DNA from: an uncultured Gaiellaceae bacterium
GTDB lineage: Bacteria; Actinomycetota; Thermoleophilia; Gaiellales; Gaiellaceae
Reading direction: 5' to 3'
Assembly (NCBI GenBank): GCA_963731615.1
Contig: CAVSWD010000005.1
Coordinates: 218,203-282,202 of the forward strand
Length of the DNA: 64,000 nucleotides
Shown here one piece after another: positions 12,069 through 28,640 of this stretch; within the stretch, counting starts at the first letter, position 1; each line of letters begins with the position of its first letter. A program made the position numbers and the translations under genes. A model generated the notes under the pieces. The model had not been told where the DNA came from, searched no databases, and was given only the letters and a program-made list of their open reading frames with translations.

Positions 12069-12352
12069 TCTCGCTTTCGACGCACGTCCTGGATACGGCG
12101 GCCGGAAGCCCCGCGGAAGGAGTGCTGATCGTCCTCTACCGCGGCGACATGTTCATGAAGGAGGCCCGCACGGACGACGACGGCCGCGCGACGCTGGGCG
12201 ACGGCCTCGATCCGGGGACGTACAGGCTCGTCTTCCACCCCGTCTCGCCGTTCTTCAAGCGCGTCGAGTTCGAGATCAGCCTCGCGGAGGGCCACTACCA
12301 CGTCCCGCTCCTCGTCTCCCCCTACGCGTGCGCGAGCTACCGCGGCAGCTGA
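12065..12352 (+). CDS. uraH: 5-hydroxyisourate hydrolase (transthyretin-like)
   Basis: STHVLD start motif and C-terminal YRGS signature. Confidence 0.9.
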   Translation: MISLSTHVLDTAAGSPAEGVLIVLYRGDMFMKEARTDDDGRATLGDGLDPGTYRLVFHPVSPFFKRVEFEISLAEGHYHVPLLVSPYACASYRGS

Positions 12353-12747
12353 GCGCCGAGGAGCTGACGCGGCTGTTCTCGGGGCGCACGCGGCTGGTGG
12401 ACGAGCTGGCGCAGCGCGAGGATCCGCTCGGCGTCGCCGAGGAGGTGGCGCTTGGGCTTCCGGAGGCCGATCGGGTCGCGGCGCTCGCGACCCATCCGCG
12501 GATCGGCGAGCCCTCGGACGAACAACGGGGCGCGGAGCCTGAGGTGCTGGCGGAGCTGGCGCGGCTGAACGCGGAGTACGAGTCGCGCTTCGGCTTCGAG
12601 TTCGTCGTCTTCGTCGACGGGCGCTCGCGCGGCGAGCTGCTGCCGGTGCTCCGCGACCGGCTCGAGCGCACGCGCGAGGAGGAGCTGGAGACCGGAATCC
12701 GCGAGCTGGTGGCGATTGCGAGGAGTCGGTGGACACCGACTACCTGA
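12328..12747 (+). CDS. uraD: OHCU decarboxylase (short form); start uncertain
   Basis: THPRIGEPSDEQRG and FGFEFVVFVDGRSRGELLPVLRDRLE motifs. Candidate GTG at 12328 overlaps the uraH 3' end. Confidence 0.7.
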   Translation: MRELPRQLSAEELTRLFSGRTRLVDELAQREDPLGVAEEVALGLPEADRVAALATHPRIGEPSDEQRGAEPEVLAELARLNAEYESRFGFEFVVFVDGRSRGELLPVLRDRLERTREEELETGIRELVAIARSRWTPTT

Positions 12748-22208: not shown

Positions 22209-22559
22209 TCAGCCCAGCCAGGCGAGCAGCAGGATCCCGATCGCGCCGAGCGCGGCGAGCCCCACCGCGACCGCGTTGACGACGAGCAGGATCAGGAGCG
22301 CCCGAGACGGCCCGGAGTCGCCCTGCGCGAGCCGAGGCCGGCGAGGCTGGTCGGCCGCACCGTTCTCGCTTCTCCAGCCGATCGCGCTCGCCAGTGTGCC
22401 GGTGATGAACTGGTTCAGGCTCGTGCCGTCGCGCTCGGCCGCTTCGGTCAGGGCACCGTGCAGGCTGCGCGGCATCCGCAGGAGCAGACGGCCGCTCGGC
22501 GTGGACGGTTCGCTGGAGCCGGCCTCAGGAGGCGCGGCCCGACGGCTCGAGACGCTCAC
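22209..22559 (-). CDS. Ribbon-helix-helix (HicB-antitoxin-like) domain protein with C-terminal transmembrane helix
   Basis: LLLRMPRSLHGALTEAAERDGTSLNQFI (RHH-like), then a linker and ALLILLVVNAVAVGLAALGAIGILLLAWL. Confidence 0.55.
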   Translation of the reverse strand: MSVSSRRAAPPEAGSSEPSTPSGRLLLRMPRSLHGALTEAAERDGTSLNQFITGTLASAIGWRSENGAADQPRRPRLAQGDSGPSRALLILLVVNAVAVGLAALGAIGILLLAWLG

Positions 22560-22576: not shown

Positions 22577-22602
22577 AAAAAATACGCTGCACAACGCAGT
22601 AT
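22577..22602 (-). terminator. Intrinsic-terminator-like hairpin followed by the only T6 run I noticed, immediately after the sigma gene stop
   Basis: Minus strand reads AUACUGC-GUUGU-GCA(GC)GUAU-UUUUUU. The stem is short and imperfect. Confidence 0.45.
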
Positions 22603-23165
22603 CACGCCACGCGTTGCCCGAGCTCGCGCCCCAAACGCCCGAGCGAGTCCCTGAGCAGGCGCGAAACGTGGACCTGCGAGATTCCCAGCTGAGCAGCGAT
22701 TCGACGCTGGCTGAGGTCGCCGTAGTAGCGCAGCTGAACGACGCGACGCTCCCGCTCCGGCAGCGAACGGAGGCCTCGCGACACGAGCGCGCGGGCCTCG
22801 CTCCTCGCAAGTCCTTCCTCACCGCTGTCATCCGAGTGTGAGCCGGCTGCGGCCTCGAGCGGAAGCGGGAACCGAGCCGGGGTCGCCTCCTCACCGGCAC
22901 TGCGCGGAATGCGAATCAGCGTCGATCGGTCGCGCAGGTGCCGCTGGATCTCGCCGGCGATCGTCGGCGCGGCGTAGGCCCCCACGGTCACGCCGCGCCG
23001 AGGATCGAACCGGTCGACCGCCTTGATCAGCCCGACTGCGCCGACCTGCACGAGGTCCTCCAACGACTCGCCGCGATGGGCGAAACGCTGTGCGATCGTC
23101 CGCACGAGCGGAAGGTGCTCTTCGATCAGCAGTCTGCGGGTCTCCTGCGCGGTCGCCGTAGCCAT
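22602..23165 (-). CDS. RNA polymerase sigma factor, SigB/F/G subfamily (187 aa)
   Basis: LVRTIAQRF..GESLEDLVQVGAVGLIKAVDRFDP, IAGEIQRHLRD (region 2), QRRIAAQLGISQVHVSRL (region 4). Confidence 0.85.
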   Translation of the reverse strand: MATATAQETRRLLIEEHLPLVRTIAQRFAHRGESLEDLVQVGAVGLIKAVDRFDPRRGVTVGAYAAPTIAGEIQRHLRDRSTLIRIPRSAGEEATPARFPLPLEAAAGSHSDDSGEEGLARSEARALVSRGLRSLPERERRVVQLRYYGDLSQRRIAAQLGISQVHVSRLLRDSLGRLGRELGQRVA

Positions 23166-23273
23166 ACGTCGACTCTACGCCTTACAGCACTCGATTGCCA
23201 AGTCGTTGTTTCGTTCCGTCTTGTGCACGTCGTCTGCTAATGCTTCACGAATTGGCTCAACTATTACCTAGGT

Positions 23274-23279
23274 GGGTAT
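23274..23279 (+). promoter_or_regulatory. GGGTAT hexamer (SigB/SigF-type -10 consensus) 13 nt upstream of the ATG at 23292; near-leaderless transcript implied
   Basis: Read directly, inside the only clearly lower-GC intergenic stretch of the locus (23170-23290). The -35 match is weak (GGCTCA, 14-nt spacer). Confidence 0.35.
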
Positions 23280-23291
23280 TTCCTCTCCAGG

Positions 23292-24550
23292 ATGCATCGG
23301 CAGTCTCTACCGGGGCACGGACTCCGGATCGCCGTCGCAGTCCTCGTCAGCCTGGCGGTCGCCCCCGCTGCAGGCGCCGAGGACGGCGTGCCGGTGCTCG
23401 TAGACCCGATCGCGATGACAACCGCGATCGTCGAAGCATCCCTCGCCGGAGTCCCAGAGCTGCCACTCGAGAGCACGCTGCCCGCAGAACCTCCGGCAGC
23501 GACGGTTCCTGAGGCTGTGGCGGCGGCGGCGGAGCCGATTCCGGCTCAGGAGCCGCAGCCAACGCCGCCGCCGCCACAGCCTCAGGTGCCCGACCCCGAA
23601 ACCGCTCTGGAGGAGCTCAGCCCGCCGCTGGAGCCGGATCTCGCGCCGGTCGAGGAGCCGCAGTATCAGCCCGAGCCGCCGCAGTATCAGCCGCCGGAGC
23701 CCGTCACCGCTCCCGTTGCCGCTCCGCCGCCGCCGGAAGCGGCCGAGGAGGAGTGGACGTGGGACTGGTCGTGGAGCTGCGGCGATGCCCCGGCCCAGCT
23801 TCCGGCGGTCAAAGGAGACAATCTCCCTGATACCTGGAACTGGAACTGGGCTTGGAACTGCGGCGGTTCAGGGCCAACGCTGGCGAATAACGAAACGGAA
23901 AAGACGACGCAGTATCAACCCGCGCTTACGCAGTATCATCCGATCAATGTCAACGTATCGATTCGGATCGCCAGCCCGGGTGACGACGGGCCGGTGACCC
24001 AGACGAATGTCGTCGTCCTCGTCGAGGCGCCGACGCTCGGGCTGACGGCCCAAACACCTGTCGCGACCGCAGCCGTGCCCCCGGCCGGGCCTCCTGAACC
24101 GCCCCAAGCCGTCCCGGACGGGGACCAGCGCCCGCAGCTGCGGAGCCCGCGACTCAGCCGGCCGCCAAACCCGCGGCCGCAGGCGCCAAAGCCGAACCGA
24201 AGACCATGCTTGCCTCCGCGCAGAACCTCGCACCGGCGGAGGCCACCCCCTGGAGCGCCCGGCCCGCCACGCCGAAGCGGCTCCAGCGCACCACCCAGGA
24301 AGCCCATCGCAACCGCCCGCAGGTCCGGCGGCCCACCCGGCGTCCACTGCCCCCGACAAGGGCGCCGATGATCCCGGTGAGCTCCGCCGGCGCAGCCCCA
24401 CTGGGCGGCGTCGACGGTGGTGGCTTCCAGCTGGCCCTCCTACTCGTTCCGTTCGCGTTCGCGCTCGTCGACAGCGCGCGCCGGGTGGTCCGAGACACCG
24501 CGCCGCCGGTGGGGAGAGGCCATAAGAAGCGGCGGAAGCGCCCCGGCTGA
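23292..24550 (+). CDS. Secreted Pro-rich protein with twin WxWxWxWxCG motifs, one fibre-type repeat unit, C-terminal TM anchor and basic tail; frameshift near 24120
   Basis: Signal peptide ...AVAPAAGA; EEWTWDWSWSCG and DTWNWNWAWNCGG; TQYHPINVNVSIRIASPGDDGPVTQTNVVVLV; C-terminal FQLALLLVPFAFALV...GHKKRRKRPG in a second frame. Confidence 0.65.
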
Positions 24551-24622
24551 CCGCGGTCCTCTCTCCCGATCAACGGGGCTCAGACGCCCCGTATCCACTG
24601 ACACTTGGAAGGAGAAGGATCG

Positions 24623-26690
24623 ATGAGACGCACACTCGCGGTACTCGCCGCGGTCGTGCTCGGGCTCCTCGGGAGCGCCGGGCAGGCGTCGGCGAGCGAT
24701 CCGGGAGGCTCTGCCGAACAGGCGGCCGCACAGGCCGGAGCCAGCGCTCAATCGGCTCTGGCACTGGCGGGCGCGCTGCAGGGCAACCCGAGCAACGCAA
24801 ACACCGCCATCAAGGTGCTGAGCCCCGGCAACGCCGGCTCCGTCAACCAGTCGAACACCGTCATCGCCGGCTCCGTGGCCGCGAACGGCAACTCGACGAA
24901 TCAGACGGCAAGCCAGACGCAGGCAGGCGGCTCGGGCACGCAGACGGCGGGCCAGATCGCAGGCAACGAGCAGTCCGCGGCCAGCGACGCCGACGCAACG
25001 CAGTACGGAGCCGAGAATCAGAACATCGACGTCCGGGTCTTGAGCCCCGGCAACAGCGGCTCCGTGACCCAGAGCAACACCGTGCTCGCCGGCTCGCTGG
25101 CGGCGAACGTGAACGAGACGAAGCAGGGAGCGATACAGACCCAGGGTGGCGGCCCGGGCTCAGGCTCCCAGACGGTCGGGCAGGCGGCAGCGAACGAGCA
25201 GGACGCCTGGGCCGACTCGAAGGCGACCCAGCACGGCGCGAAGAACAAGAACATCTCCGTTCGCGTTCTCAGCGACGGGAACGACGGGGACGTCAACCAG
25301 TCGAACACGGTCGCGGGACTCGCGGCCGCGCTCAACGGCAACGCGACGGGTCAGACCGCATCGCAGAGCCAGGCCGGCGGTGGTACGCAGGCCGCGCTCC
25401 AGGGCGCGACGAGCAAGCAGAAGGCGGGGAGCTCCGCCGACGCCAAGCAGCACGGGGCGTCGAACGAGAACATCGCCGTCCGCGTGCTCAGCCCGGGCAA
25501 CGGCGGCTCCGTGCACCAGTCGAACACCGTTCTCGCCGGCTCGCTGGCGCTGAACGGGAACCACACGTCGCAAGCCGCCAACCAGGTGCAGGGCGGCGGG
25601 TACGGCGGCTCGAATCAGCAGGTGGCAGGCCAGGCGGCCACGAACGACCAGGACGCCGACGCCTACTCGGACGCCGACCAGCATGGCGCGTCGAACACGA
25701 ACCTGCCGATCCGGGTGCTCAGCGACGGGAACGACGGTGACGTCAGCCAGTCGAACACGGTGGCCGGGATCGCCGCCGCGCTCAACGGCAACGCGACGAC
25801 GCAGTCCGCATCGCAGAGCCCAGGCAGGCGCACCCGCGCCCATGCCTGTCCTCGTTCCGTACGACGACCACAAGGTCGTCCCGAAGGACGCGGGAACGGG
25901 CGTGCAGGCGCTGGGGCAGATCGCGCAGAACACGCAGGACGCCGACGCTGTCTCGACCGCCTCGCAGGAGCACGTCTCGAACACGAGCGCTCCCGTGCGG
26001 ATCGGCAGCGCCGGCAACGACGGCTCGACCACCCAGGCGAACACGGTTCTCTCGCTCGGGATCGCGGCCAACGGCAACAAGACGTACCAGGGGGCAACAC
26101 AGAACCAGGCCGGCTCCGGTGGGACGCTCGTGCAGGCGTCTGGGCAGATCGCCCAGAGCAAGCAGGACGCACTCGCCTGTGCCGACGCTGAGCAGAAGGG
26201 CGCCAAGAACGAGAGCACGCCCGTCCGCGTCTTCAGCGACGGCGCTGCCGGCTCGACGAGCCAGTCGAACACCGCGGCCGCGATCGCTGCCGCGCTGAAC
26301 GGCAACTCCACCGGCCAGTCGCTCGGCCAGTCGCAGGCCGGCTCTCCCGGCTCGACGCTGGTTCAGGCATCAGGCCAGGCCGCGGGGAACCACCAGACAG
26401 CGGCCGACAAGGCCGACGCGAAGCAGTACGGCGCCTCGAATCAGAGCACGCCTGTCCGCATCGGTCACGAGCGGCGCAAGCCGTGTGAGCAGCAGCCGCG
26501 CTGCGAGGACAAGCGGCCGGCCGAGCCGTGCCGCACGTGCGCACCCCGGAAGCCCGACTACGACGAGTGCAAGCGTCCGGTCGAGCCGAAGCCGTGCGAA
26601 CGACGCAAGCCGGTGATCGAGCGGTGCAATCCGTGCGATCGGCGGCCCAAGGAAGCGACCCCGAAGTGGAGGTATGCAGACGAGAGGTAG
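24623..26690 (+). CDS. Secreted Q/N/G/S/A-rich protein with 7.5 repeats and a Cys/Pro/Lys/Arg/Glu-rich C-terminal tail (no family assigned); frameshift near 25820
   Basis: AGGAG SD; signal peptide MRRTLAVLAAVVLGLLGSAGQASA; repeat core N.N[IL].VRVLS[PD]GN.G.V.QSNTV......A.NGN.T.Q.A.Q.Q.GG; tail RKPCEQQPRCEDKRPAEPCRTCAPRKPDYDECKRPVEPKPCERRKPVIERCNPCDRRPKE. Confidence 0.75.
24780..26480 (+). repeat. Tandem in-frame coding repeats, periods 219-231 nt (one unit 286 nt), 7.5 copies
   Basis: The VR[VI] landmark codons recur at 24809, 25031, 25259, 25478, 25709, 25995, 26223 and 26454. Units 3 and 5 are nearly identical at DNA level. Confidence 0.8.
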
Positions 26691-26817
26691 AGCGACCTGA
26701 ACGTGCTTCCGCAGGCGGGTGCGCGCGCCCGCCTGCGGAGGCAGAACTCGGCTCCGTTGACACGAAATCGGCGCAGTACTACCGTCGAAGCAGGGAAAAC
26801 GACCAAGGGCGGCCGCA

Positions 26818-27308
26818 TTGCCCGCAACGAGAGCGAGATCGTCACTGCGGCGATCGTGGCCCCCGGCAGGGGTCGTGGCCCTCCTATGCCTGTTTCTCGC
26901 CGCCGTGCCGCTTCCGGCGGCAGCGATGCCCACGCCCGATCCGGCGCCCTCCGGGGTGACGCCCGACCCGGCGCCCACAGCCCCCGCCGTCGTGATGCCG
27001 ACGTCGCCGGCGGTCCGCGTGCCGGTTCAGCAAGCGTCTCGGCCCGCAGCAGCGACCCCGCCCGTCCGCCGCCAGGCACCGGCTCCTCGACCGAAGGCGA
27101 AAGCGAAGCCGAAACGGCGGTCGTCGCGCTTCAGGCCGTCGTCCGGGACTCGACACAGGCCCCCCGCAGCCCCTCCTTGCCTGCAGCGGCAGCCGCAGTC
27201 GAGCGGAGGCTGCTCGTGCTCGCCGGGGTCGCGCTGATCGTCGTCGCGCTGGGCGGCGGCGTCGTCCTCGTCGCGAGCCGCCGCGCCCTTGCGGGAGCAC
27301 ACGCATGA
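26818..27308 (+). CDS. Pro/Ala-rich protein with N-terminal signal sequence and C-terminal TM anchor; frameshift near 27120
   Basis: ...RRSWPPAGVVALLCLFLAAVPLPAAA|MPTPDPAPSGVTPDPAPTAP...KAKAKPK, then in another frame ...RRLLVLAGVALIVVALGGGVVLVASRR. Its stop overlaps the next ATG (ATGA). Confidence 0.55.
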
Positions 27309-28640
27309 GCGCCATGCGACGGCTCGGGTTGCTCGGCGCGCTGATCCTGCCGCTCGTCGTCGCGCCGCAGGCCGGCTCCGTCCCCGGCGCGCCGATTCCC
27401 CAATGTTCTCCCAGTGCGGCGGCCGGCTGCAACGGCTGGTTCACCGGCAACGTCACCGTCTCGTGGACGTACGACCCGGCCGGCGTGACGCAGACCGTCG
27501 GCTGCAACGTCAAGACGATCACTGCCGACGGCACTACCTCCCAGTCGTGCGAGGTCTGGTACGGCGACTCCAGCTTCGCCCGCACCGTCACGATCCGGCG
27601 CGACGCGACGCCGCCGCAGGTCACAGGCTCGGCCTTCGAGCGCGCCCCCGATGCGGACGGCTGGTACAACCGGCCGGTCGCGGTCACCCTCTCCGGTACC
27701 GATGCCACGTCCGGCCTGGCCTCGTGCGACCGGCCTGCCTACAGCGGCCCCGACGCCACGTCTTCGCAGCTCTCGGGAACCTGCCGGGACGTTGCCGGGA
27801 ACACGAGCACAGCGGCGACGGTCACGCTCAAGTACGACGCCACCGCTCCGGCCGTCAGCGCCGCGGCGGATCGGGCACCGGACGGCAAGGGCTGGTACCG
27901 GCGGCCGCTGACGGTCCGGTTCACGGCCACTGACGCCGTCTCGGGCGTCGCCTCCTGTACCGCCCCGGCCCGGTATGCGGGCCCCGACCGCCAGGGCGTC
28001 GCCCTCGCGGGCAGCTGCCGCGACGGCGCCGGGAATGTGTCGGCGGAGCAGCCCTTCGTGCTCAACTACGACGCGACGGCGCCGAAGCTCAGCCGCGTGA
28101 AGGCGCAGGTCGCGCGGGGCGTGGCGCGCGTCGGCTGGCAGAAGCCCGCCGATGCAGTGCTCGTCCGGATCGAGCGGAGCCCGGGCCTGAACGGAGCCAA
28201 GCAGACGCACGTCTACAGCGGCACCGGAGAGCAGTTCCTCGATCGCACGGTTCGCCGCGGCGTGGCGTACCGGTACGAGGTCAGCGCGCTCGACGCCGCC
28301 GGCAACGTCTTCGGAACGACCGTCGCGACCGGGCCGCGTCCGGCCCTGCACACGCCCGCGGCACGGGAGGTCGTGCGGGCGCCCGTCGTGCTCGGCTGGA
28401 ACGCCGTTGCCGGCGCCCGCTACTACAACGTCCAGCTGCACCGAAACGGCGTCAAGGTGCTGACCGCCTGGCCGCGGACACCGAGGCTCCGGATCGCCCG
28501 CAGCTGGCGCTCGCTCGGGAAGCACGCAGTCGCTTCGGCCCGGCACCTACACGTGGTACGTCTGGCCCGGGCTCGGATCGCGCTCGCTCTCCCGCTACGG
28601 CAAGCTGCTCGGCTCGAGCAGCTTCGTCGTCAAGCGCTAG
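27305..28640 (+). CDS. Secreted multi-domain protein (three Ig-like Cys-containing modules + FN3-like + C-terminal conserved module); frameshift near 28525
   Basis: Signal MSAMRRLGLLGALILPLVVAPQAGS. Recurring D.TAP.V......P...GWY..P..V.....DA.SG.ASC......G.......G.C.D.AGN. C-terminal ...LRPGTYTWYVWPGLGSRSLSRYGKLLGSSSFVVKR in a second frame. Confidence 0.7.

Follow-up and report, generated by a model that had tools for sequence, protein, structure and literature searches.

What kind of protein is encoded by gene B, at positions 24623-26690 (plus strand) of a 64,000-nucleotide stretch of DNA from an uncultured Gaiellaceae bacterium (assembly GCA_963731615.1, contig CAVSWD010000005.1, positions 218,203 to 282,202; the whole stretch is called the window below), and what might this protein build? 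The stretch has a G+C content of about 71%. Gene B, which reads as 688 amino acids once one base is removed from a C run at 25819-25821, is the second of four genes, A-B-C-D, that recur together in all nine loci compared. Its product consists of a signal peptide, recognised by inspection (24623-24694, plus strand), an array of tandem repeats made up of a half unit, seven units, and the start of an eighth (24695-26465, plus strand), and a tail rich in Cys, Pro, Lys, Arg, and Glu (26466-26687, plus strand). The answer put forward here, with somewhat less than an even chance of being right, is that a cross-β assembly on the cell surface of Gaiellaceae-type actinobacteria has B as its major structural subunit, exported by the Sec route. 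Judged by the models, B would be of a known kind, that of the secreted imperfect-repeat cross-β subunit with a motif-sharing anchored partner, and would represent an uncharacterised family of this kind.

The repeat protein and its reading frame

The ATG of gene B at 24623 is preceded by the Shine-Dalgarno (SD) sequence GGAAGGAGAAGGA (24607-24619, plus strand). Its core, GGAAGGAG, is kept in eight of the nine loci (L008 deviates) and the full 13-mer in six. The N-terminus of the protein, MRRTLAVLAAVVLGLLGSAGQASA followed by Ser-Asp, has the n, h, and c regions of a Sec-type signal peptide, as judged by inspection. An earlier reading of the stretch, made from its letters without database searches (the sequence-only reading), had reported a strong SD and a signal peptide, and both stand. 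A Tat signal was considered and ruled out: the RR pair is not conserved, and the orthologues have KR or RH.

The seven full units of B measure 73, 74, 76, 76, 77, 77, and 95 residues, the longest being unit 5, which owes its length to a 19- to 20-residue Pro/Val insertion, APAPMPVLVPYDDHKVVPKD. The array is flanked by a degenerate half unit at its N-terminal side and by the first nine residues of an eighth unit, which bears out the 7.5 tandem units, one of them with a Pro/Val insertion of about 20 residues, of the sequence-only reading. Pairwise identity among the units is 43-70% (mean 55%), and every unit scores 58-91 bits against a hidden Markov model (HMM) of the unit, far above chance. Residues 26-614 comprise 19.9% Gln plus Asn, 50.6% Gly, Ala, Ser, and Thr, 1.4% aromatic residues, and a single Cys, located in unit 6, much as had been described. 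The accompanying statement that the repeats carry almost no charge was too strong: 10.4% of these residues are charged, with a net charge of -15. The C-terminal tail had gone unmentioned. It is 74 residues long, contains 8 Cys and 13 Pro, and is 50% charged, with a net charge of +7.

The frame of gene B is interrupted once in the window. It is open to about position 25819, and the repeats resume in another frame, which ends at 26690. The sequence AGCCCAGGC at 25814-25822, with its CCC run at 25819-25821 (plus strand), is judged to have one base too many because the orthologues read through in a single frame, as in locus L002, where ACC CAG GCG GGC (S-Q-T-Q-A-G) is in frame. Intact orthologues of B have 665-695 amino acids, are 76-84% identical to it, and cover about 97-100% of its length. 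The part of B downstream of the frameshift is 74-83% similar to the orthologues, as much as these are among themselves, and therefore shows no sign of decay. A programmed frameshift was ruled out, the orthologues being in frame and a slippery sequence being absent. Relative to the syntenic contig L001, five frameshifts occur in about 22 kb (at ~17470, ~24118, 25819, ~27100, and ~28520), one each in A, B, C, and D and the fifth in a gene for a transporter of the major facilitator superfamily (MFS). At least two of them lie in runs of G or C, which are 1.6 times denser in the gene cassette, and the closest relatives are 'MFD' assemblies of metagenome-assembled genomes (MAGs). The five frameshifts are likely to be indel errors of sequencing. 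When metagenomes were scanned for this strain with an intact B frame, only two unrelated chance matches came up.

The repeat unit across the family

Profile searches of frame-corrected B gave no family at E<=1 in Pfam and NCBIfam, and a 20-orthologue profile had no match at E<=10 among the sequences of the PDB, the FapC entries included; the earlier view that B belongs to no known family thus holds. A word-indexed search returned at least 755 relatives, and of 1.84 billion cluster representatives (clusters at 50% identity) an exhaustive search retrieved 620 with E<=1e-3. Throughout, the relatives are named 'hypothetical protein' or are clearly mis-annotated. The taxa named are only Gaiellaceae, Thermoleophilaceae, and Actinomycetota MAGs; a genome scan with narrow patterns returned five loci, a number that says little on taxonomic breadth. 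Ten relatives that are extended at the N-terminus were scanned against Pfam, and the matches were no more than sub-threshold noise. One protein, P0161, was considered as a true fusion of A and B, and rather looks like a run-on from a frameshift. The literature searched on the motif, on Gaiellales in combination with amyloid or S-layer, and on surface repeat proteins of Thermoleophilia held nothing relevant, and neither the B family nor its cassette is described in it.

The architecture of the unit was derived from 1188 units of 121 proteins, which have 6-14 units each. Conservation follows a strict two-residue periodicity, with Gln and Asn invariant at fixed positions. The unit starts with N1, N3, P5, V6, R7, and V8, followed by the fixed turn S10-P-G12-D-x-G15. 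In the next segment, here called strand A, the conserved face reads V17, Q19, N21, V/A23, S25, A27, A29, N31, N33, T35, Q37, A39, Q41, Q43, and G45; among these, V17, Q19, N21, A27, A29, N31, N33, Q37, A39, Q41, and Q43 are conserved in at least 84-99%. Past a Gly-rich stretch the pattern continues, in what is here called strand B, with G50, Q52, I54, Q56, A58, N/S60, Q62, A64, A66, S68, A70, Q72, and G74, of which Q52, Q56, A58, Q62, A64, and Q72 are conserved likewise. The positions in between are variable and bear nearly all of the charge. Indels are confined to two sites, namely after position 46 (689 units, up to 38 residues) and at positions 73-76 (573 units), and none was found inside the strands or the SPGDxG turn in any of the 1188 units.

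Autocorrelation of the unit profile revealed a period of two and a weak half-unit echo at a shift of 33-35, and no other sub-repeat. Because internal periodicity is limited to these two, the unit is taken to consist of two long strands and not of the three or four short curli-like segments into which it had been split before; the two indel sites and the two strands of about 28 and about 35 residues in the AlphaFold2 (AF2) models speak for the same revision. As far as sequences can tell, the periodicity and the indel pattern show a defined strand-turn architecture, independently of AF2. Every unit of B also contains N-G-N-x-T at positions 31-35 (e.g., 24887-24901) and with it the sequon N33-x-T35; this sequon sits on the conserved face and may form an Asn/Thr ladder instead of a glycosylation site.

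Two further features were seen in the distant relatives P0026, P0039, P0062, and P0115. These proteins lack the Cys/Pro/Lys tail and instead have C-G-C or C-x-C pairs, which lie in the variable turn of alternate units and in the loop at 73-76. At the edges of the solenoid, such Cys pairs might act as disulfide staples or as metal sites. The window DNA itself has a 450-nucleotide period (TRF), which, together with the Cys pairs in alternate units, points to a two-unit super-repeat.

Predicted fold

An AF2 model of full-length B, made with an alignment of 20 sequences, had a mean predicted local distance difference test (pLDDT) of 59, with values of 70-86 in the central repeats, and a predicted template modelling score (pTM) of 0.61. 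It contains two strands per unit, of 28-34 residues; the pLDDT is below 50 in the signal peptide, the N-terminal segment, the insertion of unit 5, and the tail. With an alignment of 121 sequences, units 2-4 were modelled as an all-β structure with a pLDDT of 83 and a pTM of 0.70, the strands being 28 and 24+9 residues long in each unit. When the models were compared with the PDB using Foldseek, no global match was obtained (TM-score 0.04-0.16). The weak matches were mainly of one class: all 12 matches of the first, full-length model and nearly all of the 44 matches of the model of units 2-4 are parallel β-helices or solenoids. Leading among the latter are FapC 9u4u (E=7e-4) and 9nqd (E=3.6e-2), tapirin, and the CsgA fibril 8enq, with 9nqd and 8enq within the top five; ice-binding proteins, Ag43, and left-handed β-helix enzymes follow at lower ranks. 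The best FapC match combines its E of 7e-4 and a probability of 0.15 with a TM-score of only 0.08-0.12 and a root-mean-square deviation (rmsd) of 26.6 Å. The predicted fold class of B is a parallel β-solenoid with one wide rung per unit, and the β-solenoid proposed in the sequence-only reading finds support in these models, the structural neighbours all being weak.

A quite different explanation is that the solenoid is an artefact of AF2, and that B is for the most part a disordered Gln/Asn/Gly/Ser-rich matrix or hydrogel protein, or becomes structured only upon aggregation. AF2 is biased to confident, unrealistic solenoids for repeat proteins and over-predicts for perfect repeats (PMC11795689). 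Three of the five AF2 models of units 2-4 have a pLDDT of about 40, only two being confident, and the composition of B is of low complexity and poor in hydrophobic residues. In ensemble studies, the CsgA monomer is itself reported to be disordered (bioRxiv 10.1101/2025.09.08.674806). For natural families with diverged repeats, curlin among them, all prediction methods were found to concur (PMC11795689), and as the units of B have diverged to a mean identity of 55%, B resembles the cases where that agreement was seen. The two-residue periodicity, the positions conserved in at least 98%, the fixed SPGDxG turn, and the indel-free strands over 1188 units also argue against an artefact; disordered regions would not retain such features across a family that extends down to about 42% identity. 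The artefact is considered very unlikely.

A model for the assembly of B

The gene directly upstream, gene A (23292-24550, plus strand), encodes about 419 amino acids after correction, by tblastn, of the frameshift near 24118; the intact orthologue in L001 has 429. The A protein has a signal peptide, Pro-rich spacers, and a C-terminal transmembrane (TM) helix with the basic end ...KKRRKRPG, and in its orthologues, too, this helix ends in basic residues and RPG. Within A lies a partial B unit, NVNVSIRIASPGDDGPVTQTN (23946-24008, plus strand), which matches the unit HMM with E=2e-6 and had gone unmentioned in the sequence-only reading. Three A orthologues that were compared with the HMM match its positions 2-26 (E=1e-7 to 1e-9), and A proteins contain one or two copies of this segment (NxNxSIRIxSPGDxGxVxQxN). 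BLAST stretches the segment shared by A and B to about 50 residues. The A family comprises 105 proteins, all unnamed, many of which share a contig with B; A has no match in Pfam or NCBIfam. A is proposed to be the membrane anchor or the nucleator of B.

In the proposed assembly, each unit of 73-77 residues would form one rung of a flat, two-sheet parallel β-solenoid. Strand A (positions 16-44) would run one way and, after the variable Gly-rich turn (45-50), strand B (50-72) would return alongside it; next would come a short kink (73-76) and the N-x-N-x-P-V-R-V segment (1-9), and the fixed-length turn S-P-G-D-x-G (10-15) would open the next rung. The conserved alternate residues (Gln, Asn, Ala, Ser, Val, and Thr) would face inward and build a core of the polar-zipper type, with ladders of Gln and Asn, the outward face of the solenoid being variable and acidic. 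As the conserved residues are small or Gln/Asn and the variable ones are charged, the conserved faces most likely pack together while the surface is free to vary. The residue pattern points to a structural role over ligand binding. With 3.3 Å per residue and 4.8 Å per rung, the 7.5 rungs of a monomer would make a plate with a width of roughly 9-10 nm that extends over about 3.6 nm in the direction of the hydrogen bonds.

Since both ends of B are incomplete rungs, it is proposed that a ribbon or fibre arises by end-to-end stacking of monomers; distant members of the family end right after a B strand, without a cap. A, tethered by its C-terminal helix and extended by its Pro-rich spacers, would serve at the surface as the docking site or nucleator of B, in analogy to CsgB for CsgA or FapB for FapC; the 23-50 residues that it supplies correspond to the last part of strand B, turn 2, and the first part of strand A. 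The Cys/Pro/Lys-rich tail of B may cross-link or tether subunits. The sigma factor encoded next to gene A would read a SigB/F-type promoter and drive the operon, and hairpins on either side of gene B, together with the very strong SD, would favour a high yield of B. A ribbon of B about 10 nm wide, formed end to end and started or held by A, appears to be the most economical model on this analysis. The analysis shows the anatomy of the sequence, the family, the conservation of the cassette, and the predicted class of fold; from these we infer the polymerisation of B, the assignment of inward and outward faces, the role of A, and the regulation. The extracellular fibre or surface-layer subunit suggested in the sequence-only reading is thus plausible.

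The same fold evidence would suit a monomeric, non-polymerising β-solenoid that is held at the surface by A or by the basic Cys-rich tail and serves as an adhesin, as a protective or hydrating coat, or as a binder of mineral or ice-like surfaces via flat acidic faces. Foldseek also returns ice-binding proteins, tapirin, and Ag43-type adhesins, and the outward faces are acidic, given the net charge of -15 in B and the frequency of Asp and Glu at the proposed outward positions 24, 26, 38, 40, and 61 family-wide. The N-terminal segment of B, predicted with low confidence to be helical, could be a cap. However, it is exactly the outward positions that are variable, so a conserved ligand-binding face is not seen; the distant members stop uncapped after a B strand; and the partial rung borne by A suits templating better than mere tethering. 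Such a monomer is an unlikely, though by no means far-fetched, explanation. A two-dimensional lattice or tubular sheath, that is, an S-layer or something like the sheath of filamentous methanogens, with C and D organising or anchoring the lattice, seems improbable. The strand lengths imply a plate-like monomer about 10 nm wide, the cassette also encodes C and D, two envelope proteins that all loci retain, and the strong expression signals would suit an abundant coat protein. Yet Pfam and NCBIfam reveal no SLH or other curated S-layer anchoring domain in B, the conserved lateral contacts that a lattice needs are at odds with outward residues and loop lengths that vary freely, and a unit number of anything from 6 to 14 would alter the lattice constants.

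Several points weigh against the ribbon of stacked B monomers and are to be set beside the AF2 bias and the divided models of units 2-4 mentioned above. The data do not separate a B polymer from a monomer. The parallel topology is taken from the fold class of weak Foldseek matches of the models and not from a contact map. We know of no solved precedent for a near-pure Gln/Asn/Ala/Ser core with straight strands of 30 residues. Where successive units are charged at the same outward position, the charges are mostly like and not opposite; in the absence of compensating counter-ions, an in-register stack would be energetically costly, which is a mild objection. No cultured organism is known to carry the B family, and A, B, C, and D are all frameshifted here, which may mean that this genome has an inactive cassette. 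Salt-bridge ladders between successive units were considered as well and are unsupported, like charges prevailing.

Pushed further, the ribbon model would define a new class of bacterial functional amyloid, a 'nanoribbon' solenoid with rungs of 73-77 residues, 3-4 times the width of curli, and with a polar-zipper Gln/Asn-ladder core that contains Ala and Ser instead of hydrophobic residues; it would be templated by a membrane-anchored partial rung and switched by a dedicated SigF-like sigma factor. This extension is doubtful and is offered tentatively. If it were true, the nanoribbon would be a main structure of the envelope or matrix in Gaiellaceae and related Thermoleophilia, groups recorded for the most part in metagenomes of soil. 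If only the fold is right, the range of functional amyloids and β-solenoids widens to a 75-residue rung with a core of nearly nothing but polar or small residues, which would be relevant to the rules of amyloid stability and to engineered protein materials. If the fold is wrong, the B family is a natural test case for the solenoid bias of AF2.

The gene cassette and its expression signals

The cassette is present in all nine loci, down to a B identity of 43-46%, and always has a gene for a ribbon-helix-helix (RHH) protein with a TM helix and a sigma factor gene divergent from A-B-C-D. For L001, L007, and L008 this is based on called genes, and for L002-L006 and the window on tblastn. Gene A of L008 was missed by tblastn; a gene is called there, and its product has the features of A. 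The sigma factor gene (22602-23165, minus strand) is divergent from A in all nine loci and encodes 187 amino acids with regions 2 and 4 (Pfam Sigma70_r2 and r4); region 3 is absent. The protein is SigB/SigF/SigG-like, its best NCBIfam match being TIGR02980 SigBFG (174 bits, E=2.8e-51), under the cut-off of 234 bits. The gene that adjoins it in all nine loci (22209-22559, minus strand) encodes the HicB-like RHH protein of 116 amino acids (Pfam HicB, E=1e-8), the C-terminal TM helix of which was seen in the translation. This protein may be a membrane-tethered regulator of the cassette or an analogue of an anti-sigma factor; no gene for an RsbW/SpoIIAB-type anti-sigma factor is among the called genes beside the sigma factor gene in L001, L007, and L008.

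Two W-x-W-x-W-x-W-x-C motifs are present in A (23754-23780 and 23835-23861, plus strand). These motifs, followed by G (WTWDWSWSC, WNWNWAWNC), occur two to four times per A protein, also in L001, L007, and L008, and have no match in curated families. They could form a disulfide-closed Trp-zipper-like hairpin or an aromatic platform for wall glycans. Downstream of B, gene C (26818-27308, plus strand; frameshifted at ~27100 in the window) encodes about 160 amino acids with an N-terminal hydrophobic segment, a Pro/Lys-rich middle part, and a C-terminal TM helix; it is an open, uncalled frame in L001 (~12200-12696) and is called in L007 and L008. Gene D (27305-28640, plus strand; about 440 amino acids, frameshift near 28520) is found in all nine loci. 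The D protein is secreted and has Ig-like/fibronectin-type-III-like repeats with RDATPP...GWY...SG...C motifs; it has no Pfam match, and its match to the NCBIfam MXAN_2561 family is weak and below the cut-off (E=6e-6).

A conserved element upstream of gene A (23249-23282, plus strand) is a candidate SigB/F-type promoter of the A-B operon. It consists of a -35-like sequence, GAATTGGCTCA (23249-23259), and a -10-like GGGTAT inside TGGGTATTTC (23273-23282), which ends 9 nucleotides ahead of the ATG of A in the window. TGG[G/A]TATTTC is invariant in eight orthologous loci, the proteins of which are down to about 43% identical, and GAATTGnCTCA sits about 15 nucleotides further upstream in these loci. 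GGGTAT is the -10 hexamer of sigmaB/sigmaF-type promoters, and the element fits control by the adjacent sigma factor.

Between the stop codon of A and the SD of B lies the stem-loop ACGGGGC-TCAGAC-GCCCCGT (24573-24592, plus strand). It is found at the same place with a different sequence in each aligned locus, and its arms therefore co-vary; it would act as a partial terminator or as a stabiliser of the messenger RNA. Past gene B, 14 nucleotides from its stop codon, there is a G+C-rich hairpin of 18 bp without a U tract (26704-26743, plus strand). The minimum free energy (MFE) of 26680-26790 is -56.7 kcal/mol (z=-4.35), and none of 200 shuffled sequences was as stable; an equivalent hairpin lies 3' of B in L001. 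Together with the candidate promoter and the SD, the hairpins suggest that the B segment is stable and translated at a high rate, which would suit a major structural subunit. Beyond the second hairpin, a conserved stretch TTGACA/TTGAAA ... TACTAC (26745-26790; ~12130-12165 in L001), which a consensus scan did not report, may provide C-D with a sigma-70-type promoter of their own.

Nearly all that is known of Gaiellaceae and their relatives comes from MAGs, and the literature searched is silent on their cell surface. A conserved envelope cassette of six genes that includes a dedicated sigma factor and a repeat protein with strong expression signals offers a handle on the surface biology of this group.

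Comparison with known systems

By sequence, B has no detectable homology to curlin, chaplin, or FapC, in keeping with what had been stated from its motifs; Pfam, hhalign, and PDB profile searches were all without a significant match. The likeness to curli lies in the design. Both CsgA, which works with CsgB (Pfam PF07012, Curlin_rpt), and B are secreted proteins of imperfect tandem repeats rich in Gln, Asn, Gly, Ala, and Ser, with Gln and Asn invariant at fixed repeat positions; in both, one repeat is predicted to make one strand-turn-strand rung of a two-sheet parallel β-solenoid, and a neighbouring gene encodes a cell-associated protein with the same motif. The CsgA fibril 8enq and P. korlensis CsgA 8c50 are among the weak Foldseek matches of the B models. 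Alignment of the B unit profile with E. coli CsgA by hhalign shows a local likeness (G-N-G-A-A-V-D-Q vs G-D-N-G-S-V-T-Q), with a probability of 0.2% and E=0.33 over 8 columns, the CsgA sequence being an approximate one. The Curlin_rpt profile (S-x5-Q-x-G-x-G-N-x-A-x3-Q, about 22 residues) has no match in B at E<=1, and neither the called genes of L001, L007, and L008 nor their Pfam annotations include csgE/F/G-like genes for secretion or assembly. The rungs also differ, with 73-77 residues in B and 19-23 in curli. Unlike curli, B has an actinobacterial host, a TM-anchored partner with only a partial unit, and a tail rich in Cys, Pro, and Lys.

Pseudomonas FapC, the partner of which is FapB, has conserved Cys near its C-terminus, which recalls the Cys-rich tail of B. 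In its PDB entries 9u4u and 9nqd it is the best Foldseek neighbour of B, differing in overall shape (TM-score 0.08-0.12). FapC and B both have linkers of variable length between strands; FapC has three repeats with long linkers as opposed to the 6-14 contiguous units of the B family, and sequence similarity is absent. No FapF-like outer-membrane channel or other fap gene was found in the L001, L007, and L008 loci. The imperfect repeats of FapC stack as layers of a cross-β solenoid (PMC12392863), as is proposed for those of B.

The chaplins of Streptomyces (Pfam PF03777), with long wall-anchored and short secreted forms, come from the same phylum as the host of B. They are under the control of developmental or stress sigma factors, and sigma control of this type is proposed for B. 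Like the system proposed for B, they are a Sec-secreted surface amyloid system with an anchored and a free, polymerising component. The chaplin domain, for which Pfam gave no match in B, differs from the tandem polar repeats of B: it is a hydrophobic stretch of about 40 residues that contains two Cys. Anchoring is by an LPXTG/sortase signal in chaplins and by a TM helix in A.

Ice-binding, ice-nucleation, and adhesin solenoids (e.g., 6eio, 3wp9, and Ag43 4kh3) also share with B the long array of stacked rungs and the flat repetitive faces, and are weak Foldseek matches of its models. Unlike the B unit, these solenoids have three-sided rungs of 16-25 residues with hydrophobic cores. Their conserved face points outward and binds a ligand, whereas the conserved residues of B are proposed to point inward.

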